A stretch of DNA of 10,935 nt. Source: a virus. Taxonomy: Duplodnaviria > Heunggongvirae > Uroviricota > Caudoviricetes. The stretch is taken from IMG/VR virus record IMGVR_UViG_2534681940_000021; one strand, written 5' to 3'. The position numbers are program-made. Positions 6,001-10,935 of the stretch are shown piece by piece. Position 1 is the stretch's first letter; the number at the start of each line of letters is the position of its first letter.

Positions 6001-9000
6001 TGAGGACATGGGGAGCGGCTTTTCGAAAAGCATTTTCCTCTATAGCAGTGATATTCTCTCGTTCATTCTTTGCGTATGCGTAGATGAAAAAGGCTTTTTC
6101 TGCAACGCGGTAAAAAATTATTGTCCGGTAACCGCCTGATTTTCCGCCACCACTTCGGGCTAATCTTTGTTTAATGACACCACTACCCAAATTTGCGGAT
6201 ATGATCCCCTTATCGGCCTGCTCCACGATTTTGCGCAGCGATTTATCGGAAATCCGATGTTTTCGGGCGAAACGTTCAAACCAGGCGTTTTTGAAAATTC
6301 GCATACCTGCCTCTGCATTTTATATAACACATAGTGTTACACCATGTGGACTATGGAGGCAATCTTTATTTGAGAATGCTTGCTGATTTATCGGTGTTCA
6401 AAAAATAGACGTAATTCAGATTGTATAAACGGCAGACAGAAAAAGTCATTGTTCTTGCGCATAAAATCCTCAGATTTACTGAGTGAAATGCGTCTCTTTT
6501 CATGGTTATAGTCCGAGAGAAGCGATAATGCATTTCATTTCCTTTACGTCAGGAGGTGTTGTGAAAATCCCAGCCAGTTTGATCCCGGGGTTTTATGAGA
6601 GCACGCGCCCGGTTGTTGTTTACAGAAACAGTGATGGTTCTTTTCAATGTGGTTTTGTTATGCGAAGTAATGAGGTTGTTGTAAGCCTTTCTCTTCTTTC
6701 TGAGGTAAGAGAGTTGGCAGGATTACCTGTTGATGATATTCAGAAGCAGCTATAAAATCAGGCTGACTTGAACCGTCGCTGAGAAACACCGTGCCACCGG
6801 AGATCCCGATGGCGCACGATAGCAGATTGCACAATTCTGCCGCCCTTGCCAGTAGGCAAGGGCGGTGTTCGCACGTATTTAAAACCGACTGGTTCCAGCA
6901 TCCCCTATGCACTGAAGAACAGGCCGAATGGCTGATCCAGTGTTACCGCAGGCGCGGATATGAGTTTGAGAAAGCCCTCAGCTTCGATCGTCGTCACTGG
7001 ATAATCTCCGTCAGGCTCCCTTATTCCGAACGCCCACCGCGTCCGTCCCGCACATTCCAGCAGCGCATCTGGAGGTAACGTGCGGGTATTACTTCGACCT
7101 GTTCTGGTACCGGAACTCGGTCTGGTTATCGTTAAGCCAGGCCGTGAATCAATGTCAGTATTCCATAACGGCAGAATATTGGTGGAGCCGGAACCGAAAA
7201 ACATGCGTGGTCTGCCGTCCGGAGTCGTTCCTGCCGTTCGCCAGCCGCTGGCAGAGGATAAAACATTACTGCCATTTTTCAGCGATGAGCGGGTTATTCG
7301 TGCAGCAGGTGGTGCAGGTGCACTGTCTGACTGGTTATTACGTCACGTGAAATCCTGCCAGTGGCCACACGGCGATTATCATCACAGCGAAACAGTCATT
7401 CACCGTTATGGTACCGGCGCGATGGTGTTGTGCTGGCACTGTGACAACCAGCTGCGCGACCAGACATCAGAATCACTCGATCAACTTGCTCAGCAGAATC
7501 TGGTTGCCTGGATGATTGATGTCATCCGTCACGCAATAAGCGGTACGCAGGAGAGGGAGTTATCGCTGGCCGAATTATCCTGGTGGGCGGCCTGCAATCA
7601 GGTGGTGGATGCACTACCTGAGGCAGTAGCGCGTCGTTCGCTGGGATTACCAGCGGAAAAAATCCGCTCCGTATACCGTGAGAGTGACATCGTACCGGGA
7701 GAACAGACAGCCATCAGCATACTGAAGCAGCGCACAAAAAATATTGCGCTGCCACTTCACGGCCACCAGCAACAAAATCCACCACAGAAAAAAACGGTTG
7801 TCAGTATCGCCGTTGATCCGGAGTCTCCTGAATCGTTCATGAGGCGGCCTAAACGTCGCCGTTGGGTTAATGAGAAATACACGCGCTGGGTAAAGACACA
7901 GCCGTGTGCGTGTTGTGGTAAGCCAGCTGACGATCCGCATCACCTGATTGGTCATGGTCAGGGGGGAGTGGGAACAAAGGCCCACGATATTTTCACGCTA
8001 CCGTTGTGCCGGGAGCATCACAACGAACTTCATGCAGACCCGCTGAAGTTTGAGAAAAAGTACGGCTCTCAGATTGAGTTAATTTTTCGTTTTCTTGATC
8101 ACGCCTTTGCGACTGGCGTGCTCGGGTAAAAGAGGTGACTGATGCTCATAGATTTGGTTTTACCTTACCCGCCGACGGTGAACACTTACTGGCGACGCCG
8201 TGGCAGCACATATTTTGTATCAAAAGCCGGGAAGCGTTATCGCCGGGCAGTGGCGCTTATTGTTCGCCAGCAGCGACTGAAATTAAGCCTGTCCGGACGG
8301 CTGGCAATAAAAATTATTGCAGAGCCACCGGATAAGCGCCGCCGTGACCTGGACAATATTCTGAAAGCACCGCTGGATGCGCTGACGCACGCGGGGTTGT
8401 TAATGGACGATGAGCAGTTTGATGAAATCAATATTGTACGTGGAAAGCCAGTATCTGGTGGACGTCTGGGGGTGAAGATTTACCCCATAATGCTTGAAGG
8501 GCAGGTCAAAAATGAAACTGGAAGATTTACCGAAATACTACTCCCCAAAATCCCCTGGCCTGACCGATGCATCGGCCTCAACGTCGAAAGATGCGCTGAG
8601 TATCACTGATGTGATGGCCGCGCAGGGCATGACACAGAATCGGGCTGAGATGGGGTTTTCTGCGTTCCTTGGGAAAATGGGCATTAGTATGAATGACAGA
8701 GAGCGGGCAACAGAATTGCTGACAGAATATGCACTCAGTCGGTGTGATCGCGTGGCGGCGTTAAGAAAACTCCCGGCAGAAATAAAACCGGCAGTGATGC
8801 GTATTATGGCTTCGTATGCGTTTGAAGATTATGCCCGTAGCGCGGCGAGCAAAAAACAGTGCCCCTGCTGTCACGGAAAAAAATTTATTGAAAGCGAGGT
8901 TTTTACAAACAAGATCCAGTATCCGGATGGTAAGCCGCCAGTGTGGGCAAAGTGCACAAAAGGCGTGTATCCGTCTTACTGGGAGGAATGGAAAAAAGTC

Positions 9001-10935
9001 AGGGAGGTGGTAAAAGTTGCCTGTCCGGAGTGTGGAGGGAAGGGAGAGGTATCCACTGCCTGTAAAGATTGTCGTGGGCGCGGTGTTGCCATTCATCGTG
9101 AAGAGTCGGGAAAAACAGGGTGTGCCGGTTTTCAGAAACTGTCAGCGTTGTGGTGGGCGTGGCTATGAAAGATTACCTTCAACGGAGGCATTTAATGCCA
9201 TATGTAATGTAACCGATGCCATATCTCTTGATACATGGAAAAAACAGTTAAACGTTTTTACGATACGCTGGTGGTGCAGTTTGATATTGAAGAAGCATGG
9301 GCAGAACAACAACTGAAAAAGGTGACCAGATAGCTTTGTTGATTTTTCCCGAATCTGTGGTAAATTTGCCCTAACGATGGGCGTTTTATGCCTGACGTTA
9401 GAAGATTTTTTACACCCGTCGCCAGGCGGGTTTTTTTATGACTGAAATCACGCCAGTACAGTAAACGCGCTGGTGGTTGTGAATACCGGTCTTTCTGCTT
9501 GCTGGCTTTTTCGACAAGAGTTATTGGTGTGTCACGTTAACCGGAAATTGGAAAGTTTGAGAAACGCGATCTGGCACAGGTGGTGATTAACGCCGCATAC
9601 CTGGTGGCCTGTGCAGATGGTGAATGTGAGGCTTCCTAGAAAGCGAAGATCGAACAGGTACTGCGTAATCAGCCTGCGCTGTCCGCGTTTACGTCAGAAA
9701 TTAATGCGATTAGCGCAACCATTATCGGTCAGCTGGATACGAACTTTAAAACTGGTCGTCGTGCGGCGTTACGTGAGATCGAGGATGTGAAACACGATAC
9801 GCGTGAAGCGGAAGATGTGCTGGATGTGGCGGTGGCCATTGCGGAGGCAGACGGCGAAATTGAGCCGGAAGAGCGCAAGGTGCTGGAAGAGATTGCCGGT
9901 GTTCTGGGTCTTCGTCTGGAGAATTACCTGTGACGGTAAAACTGCGCCTGACTGTGGCTGCACTCCTGCTGTTTCTGGTGGTGATGGTGGATTTCACCAG
10001 CAGAATCATGTCGGTGCTGGCGGATGGGGTGCTGGTCTGCGGCATTGTGGTATTGCTGTGGCCGGTGATAAAAAGAAACAGCCTGCATATGCTTGATTTT
10101 TTTGTTGCTGTTTATTAAAAACACTTCTGCATGGTCGAATCCCCCCTGTGCGGTGGGGCAATCAGCAAGAAGGAATATGGGGTAATCGCGGATTCAGGTG
10201 CTGGTACTGAATTCACCGGGAGGCACCCGGCACCATGCTTCGCCACAAAAGTGTTATTTCTGTTTTTCTCAAACTATCATCGTTATCCCTTTATTTCCGG
10301 CTGCGCATGGCGCGGCCTTTTTTTTACGTACCAGCCACTGGCAGATGGTCATCCTGTGATTTGATTCCGGTTCCGGCTTTTTAACTCTGTTCCTGTACAC
10401 GGGAGAAATTCGATGTCGATTAAACATTATGATGTTGTCAGGGCGGCGTCGCCGTCAGATCTTGCGGAAAAGCTGACACACAAACTGAAAGAGGGCTGGC
10501 AGCCATACGGCGGACCGGTTGCCATTACGCCGTACACACTGATGCAGGCGGTGGCTATTGAAGGAGAGCCACAGGTCGGCCCTTCATCTGAGCCGGATTG
10601 GTACTACGTCATCGTACTGGCCGGGCAGTCCAATGCCATGGCTTACGGTGAAGGGCTTCCGCTGCCGGATTCATACGATGCTCCGGATCCGCGCATTAAA
10701 CAGCTGGCGCGCCGGCAGGTACAGTGACGCCGGGCGGGGCTGCCTGCAGATATAACGATATTATTCCGGCTGACCACTGTCTGCATGATGTGCAGGATAT
10801 GAGTACGCTGAATCATCCGAGGGCTGACCTGAGCAAAGGGCAGTACGGCTGTGTCGGCCAGGGTTTACATATTGCCAAAAAACTGCTCCCGTATATCCCG
10901 AATAACGCGGGGATCCTGCTGGTACCATGCTGTCG

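Follow-up and report, generated by a model that had tools for sequence, protein, structure and literature searches.

A long-form lambda Q antiterminator gene interrupted by two single-base indels in a draft Escherichia coli contig

By its sequence, the gene at 8512..9333 of the window (the whole stretch of 10,935 nt that was analysed) is an ordinary long-form antiterminator of the lambda Q family. The frame switch that had been flagged in this gene has roughly an even chance of being no biological feature but an error in the consensus of an old draft, and this is the explanation that we favor. The finding is ordinary and nothing new, because a draft-assembly consensus error is the most probable origin of the flagged frameshift.

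The Q gene and its late promoter region

The features of the Q locus are listed below.

8512..9333, plus strand: Q antiterminator gene, lambda-Q family, long QuuQ-like form; native length 822 nt / 273 aa, interrupted twice here
8512..9168, plus strand: Q ORF as written, 218 aa by translation, ATG 8512 to TGA 9166-9168
9111..9238, plus strand: middle segment of Q, native codons ~200-242 with the fourth motif CQRCGGRG, in the +1 frame only
9245..9333, plus strand: native C-terminal 29 codons of Q and stop codon TAG 9331-9333, again in the start-codon frame
9339..9366, plus strand: PR'-like late promoter with -35 TTGATT (9339-9344), 16-nt spacer and -10 TAAATT (9361-9366)
9373..9378, plus strand: -10-like sigma-dependent pause element AACGAT of qut, assigned by alignment to lambda
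9414..9437, plus strand: tR'-like intrinsic terminator with a 7-bp stem, a 4-nt loop and T7

When both indels are repaired, the encoded protein is identical to WP_000762902.1, the intact Q orthologue annotated in the related locus L001. The repaired protein matches the Pfam family Antiterm (PF03589) with 172 bits (cutoff 26.7) and lambda Q (PDB 7UBM) from end to end (E=1e-41), with residues 1-113 and 182-273 covered. Full-length matches are present in 131 phage records, and the intact protein is encoded on at least 1000 contigs. In the nearest relatives of the contig RusA has 124 aa and Q has 273 aa. The Q gene of the window differs from that of L001 by one synonymous SNP (8586) and the two indels; there is no nonsynonymous change. 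Its genomic position is typical of the lambda Q family, with RusA upstream and the -10 TAAATT, AACGAT and the terminator downstream. In the relatives, nanS-p and the genes for holin and lysozyme come after Q and the terminator.

The ORF that starts with ATG 8512 departs from its frame near 9108-9115. It comprises the native residues 1-199 followed by 19 out-of-frame residues; the fourth Cys pair and the last 74 residues of the native protein are missing. In GenBank, a shorter gene is called (8614..9168, 184 aa, EHV10424.1). The segment 9111..9238 aligns with residues ~134-177 of lambda Q and the codons of 9245..9333 with its last 29 residues. The true C-terminus, ...TVKRFYDTLVVQFDIEEAWAEQQLKKVTR, matches the C-terminus of lambda Q in the alignment, and the stop codon is at 9331-9333, whereas the first-pass annotation had let the gene end at 9316. 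An uninterrupted full-length Q ORF is absent from the window due to frameshifts at 9108-9110 and 9239-9244.

The repaired protein contains four CxxCxGxx motifs, at residues 117, 171, 184 and 210. Three of these precede the flagged shift and one follows it, in agreement with the earlier description of CxxC-type motifs in both halves. The accompanying statement that lambda Q has fewer also holds, as only two of the four align with lambda Q. The lambda-equivalent pairs C184/C187 and C210/C213 are both present in the DNA, but in different frames as written, and the 218-aa ORF includes only the first of them (C184/C187).

The -10 region of the PR'-like promoter aligns with that of lambda PR', and its spacer carries a TG at 9358-9359. 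A scan with promoter consensus sequences did not report PR' (8 of 12 matches); it was found via the lambda alignment. The spacing between AACGAT and the -10 is the same as in lambda, and the stretch GGTAAATTTG...AACGATGGG is conserved relative to lambda 44479-44809. In lambda, AACGAT acts as a sigma-dependent pause element. PR' and tR' show no differences from L001, whose Q is intact. Together with the terminator at 9414-9437, these comparisons bear out the earlier view of PR'/qut and tR' as intact. By analogy with lambda, the native Q would bind at PR', capture RNA polymerase paused at AACGAT and take it past tR' (9414-9437) into nanS-p, the lysis genes and the late genes.

Single-base indels in Q and the end of the contig

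The lesions and the adjacent RusA gene are as follows.

9108..9110, plus strand: +1 insertion, GG to GGG, immediately before the A5 run 9111-9115 (pairwise and multiple alignments; GG in all relatives)
9239..9244, plus strand: -1 deletion, A7 to A6 tract (alignments; A7 in most relatives)
8508..8512, plus strand: A5 tract (A6 in relatives) at the overlap of RusA stop and Q start, native ...AAAAAATGA (alignments)
8142..8609, plus strand: RusA resolvase ORF, 155 aa as compared to 124 aa in the native form (Pfam RusA and the annotation of relatives)
10088..10718, plus strand: seven further contig-private single-base indels, absent from relatives

The frame switch that the first-pass annotation placed at AAAAA (9111..9115) is real, but the extra base is not part of that run. 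The closest relatives have GG followed by A5 and the window has GGG followed by A5; thus, the inserted base is a G at 9108-9110 and not an A. A 51-mer with the GGG allele has no match in 5,426 complete E. coli genomes, and an exact-pattern scan for the allele found none in IMG/VR, the GTDB representatives and the JGI metagenome contigs. No record of the 218-aa product was found. The 184-aa product is present on exactly one contig, that of the window itself, among 153 billion gene positions.

Instead of the single frameshift described previously, two are present. The second, A7 to A6 at 9239-9244, puts the native Q reading back into the frame of the start codon. Deletion of one A at the flagged site, which had been expected to restore a continuous protein of about 268 aa, does open an ORF of 267 aa, but because of the second frameshift its final 23 residues are read in the wrong frame and form a false tail. 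One-A deletion is therefore ruled out as a full repair of Q.

At the RusA-Q junction, the change from A6 to A5 at 8508-8512 abolishes the stop codon of RusA, which overlaps the start of Q. The last residue of RusA is changed from K to N and followed by a 31-aa out-of-frame extension into Q. A 41-mer with A5 at this position has no match in complete genomes; a RusA of 155 aa that is extended in the same way was found on two Logan contigs.

The window corresponds exactly to the entire 10,935-bp contig AIFM01000018.1 from the E. coli DEC4C draft assembly (GCA_000249415.2). The DEC drafts were presumably derived from 454-based sequencing. Pairwise alignment with L001 shows zero indels from 111 to 8506, and another related locus, L092, is 100% identical from 3671 to 8506, with indels beyond that. 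The last 2.4 kb of the contig, on the other hand, contain ten single-base indels, nine of which are private to the contig. Private differences in 8490-10935 amount to nine single-base indels and one SNP; there are none in 2500-8490. Both insertions and deletions occur among the private indels, and several lie outside long runs. Downstream of Q these comprise two deletions (10088 -A, 10104 -T), four insertions (10136 +C, 10329 +T, 10715 +G, 10718 +G) and a change from C5 to C6 at 10141-10146. All seven are absent from 24 of 24 relatives (6 of 6 for 10715 and 10718). The insertions at 10715 and 10718 frameshift nanS-p (SASA esterase). The remaining ORF (10413..10727) has 104 aa, and its product is found on exactly one contig, again the window's own, among 153 billion gene positions.

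The binomial probability that at least nine of ten private differences are indels is ~1e-8 to 4e-6, if indels account for 10-20% of mutations in nature. That all nine fall within 2.4 kb has a probability of ~1e-6. Neither the G insertion nor the downstream indels occur in the closest relatives or in any assembly other than this one.

This part of the contig belongs to a repeated region. The end of RusA, Q, a TerB pseudogene and the start of nanS-p form a multi-copy module in O157-type genomes. The Q locus occurs in up to 4 places per related genome and the region 9334-10935 in up to 22. The TerB gene adjacent to Q has an old in-frame TAG that is common to 24 of 25 relatives. From 9477 on, the haplotype of the window is that of loci combining the A6 tract with this TerB module.

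Origin of the frameshifts

The private status of the extra G and the ratio of nine private indels to one SNP fit an assembly error and do not fit natural mutation. Among the options offered in the first-pass annotation, a homopolymer or sequencing error is thus the best supported at the flagged site, although the extra base is a G and not an A. The insertion at 9108-9110 would then be one of the technical indels found in this contig alone, and Q in the organism itself would probably be intact or have no lesion other than the A6 allele. The three lesions of the RusA-Q region differ in their occurrence in independent assemblies: the A6 tract is found there, the RusA-stop deletion is found in the two Logan contigs and the G insertion in none. 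Two of the three, the A6 allele and the RusA extension, accordingly have counterparts elsewhere and could be real.

It is conceivable, with a distinctly lower probability than the favored explanation, that the lesions are of mixed origin. The A6 tract at 9239-9244 would be a genuine circulating null allele of Q in DEC4C, and the extra G would be an assembly error, as would the other private indels. The allele is present in two complete genomes, MBT-5 and DEC9B, where PGAP annotates Q as 'frameshifted' and where the TerB module with the internal stop lies downstream as in the window. It is also found in two IMG/VR contigs, as compared to at least 80 with A7. The 267-aa product is encoded on 18 contigs (NCBI, Logan and ENA) on the Q background of the window (P0002) and on 12 and 2 contigs on two other Q backgrounds. 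Since A6 occurs in other strains, it may be real here as well, and the switch of haplotype at 9477 to the A6/TerB type indicates that it could have been acquired by recombination. A 152-nt pattern linking the window haplotype to the A6 tract was not found in metagenome and genome contigs. The 267-aa product has 23 wrong residues in place of the last 29 native ones. No other part of Q is as well conserved with lambda Q as the C-terminus lost in this way, and such a protein would probably be inactive; transcripts from PR' would then end at tR' unless another prophage provides a compatible Q. If late-gene activation is truly lost, the second frameshift is the more credible lesion. However, all nearest relatives of the prophage have A7, A6 is rare (2 of ~2,480 complete genomes with this Q gene; 18 contigs as compared to at least 1000 with the intact protein), and, in a stretch with nine other indels, a miscalled length is most likely at the A7 tract.

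Real decay is unlikely. It would mean that the extra G and most or all of the other indels are true mutations, that Q, the end of RusA and nanS-p are pseudogenes and that the prophage has lost late-gene activation. Most lambdoid prophages of O157 are defective and frameshift defects are common in them (PMC2669165). The adjacent TerB carries its old TAG, and Q copies in other strains are frameshifted in A or G tracts, some of them repeatedly. The private indel-to-SNP ratio is, on the other hand, far from any natural spectrum. Insertions are as numerous as deletions, some lie outside runs, Q has no nonsynonymous changes, the private alleles are found in no other assembly and the preceding 8.4 kb of the contig have no indels relative to L001.

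Frameshift alleles in the A-tracts of Q recur across many assemblies. Alleles with -1 at the 8877-8883 tract yield 166-aa products on 10, 7 and 21 contigs and at least three backgrounds; -1 alleles of this tract and of the 9239-9245 tract occur in independent assemblies, complete genomes among them. We regard it as improbable that the A6/A7 tracts of the long-form Q and the RusA-Q junction are selected slippage hot spots, providing a recurrent and perhaps reversible switch-off of the late genes that grounds the prophage without deleting it, with DEC4C as one natural example.

Recoding, in which full-length Q is made via programmed ribosomal frameshifting or transcriptional slippage at the G and A tracts, has a negligible probability. 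The G insertion does produce a zero-frame G_GGA_AAA heptamer that looks like a -1 slippery site. A -1 shift at this site leads to the wrong frame, though; +1 is needed and subsequently an opposite shift at 9239-9244. The A5/A6 tracts are also shorter than tracts for which efficient transcriptional slippage is known. Q is a single 273-aa ORF in 69 of 80 related loci, the broken copies are hit at different sites and the GGG allele is unique. The two-frame arrangement is thus not conserved, and the earlier suggestion that expression might need a frameshift is rejected because the homologues are overwhelmingly single-frame. Programmed -1 or +1 frameshifting and transcriptional slippage were both discarded on account of the wrong direction, the need for two opposite shifts and the lack of conservation.

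If the indels are errors, as we favor, DEC4C simply has the common intact Q. If they are real, it harbors one more defective O157 lambdoid prophage of a well-documented kind. For frameshifts on short contigs of old drafts, especially in multi-copy prophage modules, near-identical relatives should be compared for an indel-only pattern before pseudogenes or recoding are called.

Comparison with known Q systems

The repaired Q protein of the window is collinear with lambda Q (PDB entries 7UBM, 7UBN and 4MO1; PF03589) from residue 1 to the C-terminal ...VTR and would share with it a Cys4 zinc ribbon formed by two CxxCxGxG motifs. Compared to lambda Q, it has a 68-residue insert (residues 114-181) with two extra CxxCxGxx motifs, and its ORF is broken twice in this contig. 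A weak match of the protein to DnaJ_CXXCXGXG is below the Pfam cutoff. As in lambda, Q lies just upstream of PR' with the -10 TAAATT, an identically spaced AACGAT and a terminator. The -35/QBE region is different, and the distance between the terminator and the start region is ~60 nt in the window and ~190 nt in lambda.

The long-form Q proteins of the QuuQ/YdfT type, known from lambdoid prophages of E. coli and from Stx phages, belong to the same class. The quuQ product of the Stx2a-converting phage Stx2_EH1910 is 97.4% identical to the repaired Q, and QuuQ-type loci have the same RusA-Q order with an ATGA overlap. From intact genes of the WP_000762902.1 type, the window differs solely by the two single-base indels and the synonymous SNP. 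The frameshifted Q genes of MBT-5 (HZT35_RS15820) and DEC9B (KIM47_RS10680) share with the window the change from A7 to A6 at the position corresponding to 9239-9244, as well as the TerB pseudogene module downstream. Unlike the window, they have neither the G insertion nor the RusA-stop deletion and represent a different Q/RusA haplotype; the Q gene of MBT-5 has an additional G-run deletion of its own.

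Reading frames of Q and differences from the closest relative

Translation of the Q-like gene yields a single frame from the ATG at 8512 to a TGA at 9166–9168 (218 aa). From about 9111 the homology continues in the +1 frame, and past 9244 the reading is back in the frame of the start codon, with the C-terminus ...AEQQLKKVTR and a TAG at 9331–9333. Thus, Q has two frame switches. The first-pass annotation described only one, which is present at 9108–9115; the second is located at 9239–9244. Removal of one base was expected to restore a protein of about 268 aa. Indeed, a 267-aa ORF results from the correction at 9108–9115, but its final 23 residues are out of frame. 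Accordingly, the gene spans 8512..9333 and not 8512..9316.

The prophage locus of E. coli O157:H7 PV15-279 (L001), in which Q is intact, is 99.5% identical to the window across 111–9554. There are 47 substitutions, mostly at the left end, and only three indels, all within 8507–9238.

Indels of the window relative to the PV15-279 locus
8508–8512, + strand: A6 to A5; the RusA TGA overlapping the Q ATG is lost
9108–9110, + strand: GG to GGG; the frameshift flagged in the first-pass annotation
9239–9244, + strand: A7 to A6; second frameshift

The inserted base at the flagged site is therefore a G and not an extra A, as the A5 run is unaltered. This G also creates a zero-frame G_GGA_AAA at 9107–9113, matching the pattern of −1 slippery heptamers. 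In relatives, RusA has 124 aa and its stop overlaps the Q start as ATGA. Since the A6 to A5 deletion destroys the TGA, RusA (8142–8609) is extended to 155 aa in the window. Beyond the indels, the only difference in Q is a synonymous SNP at 8586, so the repaired Q (both indels undone, 273 aa) is identical to WP_000762902.1. Exact-protein look-up identified the window as the complete 10,935-bp contig AIFM01000018.1 of E. coli DEC4C (assembly GCA_000249415.2). Six other draft contigs encode an identical DUF968 protein and, where they cover the genes, a RusA of 124 aa and a Q of 273 aa. One of these six (L092) has 100% identity with the window across 3671–8506 and thereafter differs by the three indels.

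Gene neighbourhood and the PR'–tR' unit

The genes upstream of Q (cI/Cro-like, YdaT, DnaT-like O, P, DUF1627, ORF6N, hok/sok, RelE/HTH, DUF968 and RusA) constitute a lambdoid early region. The following elements were located in the window.

Transcription elements and RNA features
4310–4383: isrK, 5' of the ORF6N gene (Rfam match over the gathering score)
4409–4492: C4 antisense RNA, 5' of the ORF6N gene (Rfam match over the gathering score)
5196–5370: sok, with hok (Rfam match over the gathering score)
9361–9366, + strand: −10 element TAAATT of a putative PR'
9373–9378, + strand: AACGAT, putative pause-inducing element
9414–9437, + strand: tR'-like hairpin followed by T7
10100–10274: STnc100 (Rfam match over the gathering score), with four private indels inside

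The −10 element and AACGAT align base for base with lambda PR' and its pause-inducing element at identical spacing, the hairpin and T7 are present, and the PR'–tR' stretch has zero differences from L001, a relative with intact Q. For these reasons the PR'/qut/tR' unit is intact, as had been proposed. The roles assigned to PR', AACGAT and tR' are taken from lambda biology and are presumably the same here. Read as it stands, the sequence would yield a 218-aa product that has lost the second Cys pair together with 74 C-terminal residues, and transcripts from PR' would stop at tR' unless another prophage supplies a compatible Q.

The TerB-family gene (about 9570–9935) contains an in-frame TAG at 9637–9639, which is common to 24 of 25 related loci (GAG in one). 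In four complete genomes PGAP labels this gene 'internal stop'. The TAG is a nonsense allele of old origin and wide inheritance; alternatively, the gene may be stably split.

Private indels and the origin of the frameshifts

Surveyed by k-mers, the window has zero private sites in 2500–8490, whereas nine private indels and one private SNP are present from 8490 to the end. Comparison of the region 3' of Q with 24 relatives placed the single SNP at 10241 and gave seven single-base indels.

Private single-base indels 3' of Q
10088: −A
10104: −T
10136: +C
10141–10146: C5 to C6
10329: +T
10715: +G
10718: +G

The last two insertions frameshift a nanS-p-like SASA carbohydrate esterase gene (DUF1737 N-terminus), which encodes 616 aa in relatives and is reduced to a 104-aa ORF (10413–10727) whose product is found on this contig only. 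None of the downstream private alleles tested occurs in complete genomes. If indels make up 10–20% of natural mutations, the probability that at least nine of ten differences are indels is ~1e-8 to 4e-6; that of nine indels falling by chance within 2.4 of 10.8 kb is ~1e-6. Insertions are as frequent as deletions. Eight of the ten window indels are run-length changes (1 to 2 and 2 to 1 included), and in the other two the inserted base matches a nearby long run (C near a C-run; T directly after T8). Such a profile is probably that of flow-based sequencing errors. The DEC draft genomes are presumably 454-based.

Furthermore, the haplotype changes at 9477 (9477–9559). Up to 9476 the window is of the PV15-279 type, which carries a methyltransferase module 3' of Q. 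From 9477 it has the TerB/DUF3927/nanS-p module known 3' of other Q genes. Either natural recombination or a chimeric assembly would account for the change. In related genomes Q is present at up to 4 places per genome and 9334–10935 at up to 22. The multiplicity of the affected stretch and the haplotype change both fit a collapsed or poorly supported consensus.

The three alleles of the RusA–Q region differ in their occurrence. A short-query search, designed so that seeding was possible only on the variant itself, gave 0 matches to GGG in 5,426 complete genomes, and the allele was not found in IMG/VR, GTDB representatives or JGI metagenomes. Protein look-up returned no record of the 218-aa product; the 184-aa product called in GenBank is present on the window contig only. 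The A5 allele was not found in complete genomes. Two Logan contigs with slightly different RusA alleles encode a RusA of 155 aa that has the out-of-frame tail seen here. Two complete genomes (MBT-5, DEC9B) carry the A6 allele of 9239–9244; in each, Q is annotated 'frameshifted' and is followed by the TerB 'internal stop' module that the window also has. IMG/VR holds two contigs with A6 versus at least 80 with A7, and the 267-aa product of the window's Q background with the A6 lesion only has exact matches on 18 contigs (NCBI, Logan, ENA).

With GGG on this contig alone and nine private indels against one SNP, a sequencing error, one option of the first-pass annotation, is the most likely reading. 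We put it at about even probability that DEC4C has an ordinary Q and that assembly errors account for the flagged frameshift and probably for every private indel. It is rather less probable that an error underlies the flagged site whereas A6 at 9239–9244 is a genuine null allele in circulation; this allele swaps out 29 C-terminal residues, the best-conserved part relative to lambda Q. Multi-hit decay is usual in O157 lambdoid prophages (PMC2669165), but the mutation spectrum speaks against it and genuine decay of this prophage is unlikely. Expression by recoding is extremely improbable and was rejected: Q is one uninterrupted 273-aa ORF in 69 of 80 related loci, the broken homologues are broken at differing places, and a −1 shift at G_GGA_AAA goes in the wrong direction and misses the native downstream frame.

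Alleles with −1 changes in the A7 tracts of Q (equivalent to 8877–8883 and 9239–9245) recur in many assemblies and several backgrounds (loci L011, L029, L051, L065 and L002–L005). Products of 166 aa are encoded by 10, 7 and 21 contigs, UM146 and a 5.4-Mb genome among them, and 267-aa products of several sequence backgrounds by 18, 12 and 2 contigs. Within IMG/VR, broken copies are over-represented in the taxon-ID series 2534681xxx/2534682xxx (4/9 vs 3/66, Fisher P=0.003). As a DEC4E contig belongs to this series, project-specific errors may contribute. The tracts could be slippage hot spots selected for prophage silencing, or could equally reflect repeated tract-length miscalls; they are only a mildly interesting by-product. 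Two A6-allele copies (L004 and L005, from DEC4E and another isolate) have Cys replaced by Phe at residue 187 in the third CxxC motif (CKDFRGRG), which suggests that this lineage has truly decayed further.

Architecture of the repaired Q

The repaired Q matches Pfam PF03589 'Antitermination protein Q' with 172 bits (cutoff 26.7). Its alignment with lambda Q (PDB 7UBM, 4MO1; E=1e-41) spans the protein from its first residue to its last, apart from an insert of 68 residues (114–181; window 8851–9054) that lambda Q lacks. Four CxxCxGxx motifs are present, at residues 117, 171, 184 and 210. The zinc ribbon of lambda Q corresponds to the last two. The first frameshift, at codon 199–200, lies between both Cys pairs of this ribbon; hence the earlier count of three motifs before the frameshift and one after, with fewer in lambda, is right. 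The insert carries the two extra motifs, and the resulting arrangement resembles the DnaJ zinc-finger domain (Pfam DnaJ_CXXCXGXG, 29.3 bits, slightly under the cutoff). This resemblance suggests that the insert motifs may form a second zinc centre in long-form Q.

Long-form Q is common: full-length matches occur in 131 phage records, and 2,497 of 5,426 complete E. coli genomes have a match, which carries the annotation 'antitermination protein'. The Q family, the long form, the PR'/tR' unit and frameshifted copies are already annotated in public records and are not novel. The best phage match to the repaired Q is quuQ of the Stx2a phage Stx2_EH1910 (97.4%).
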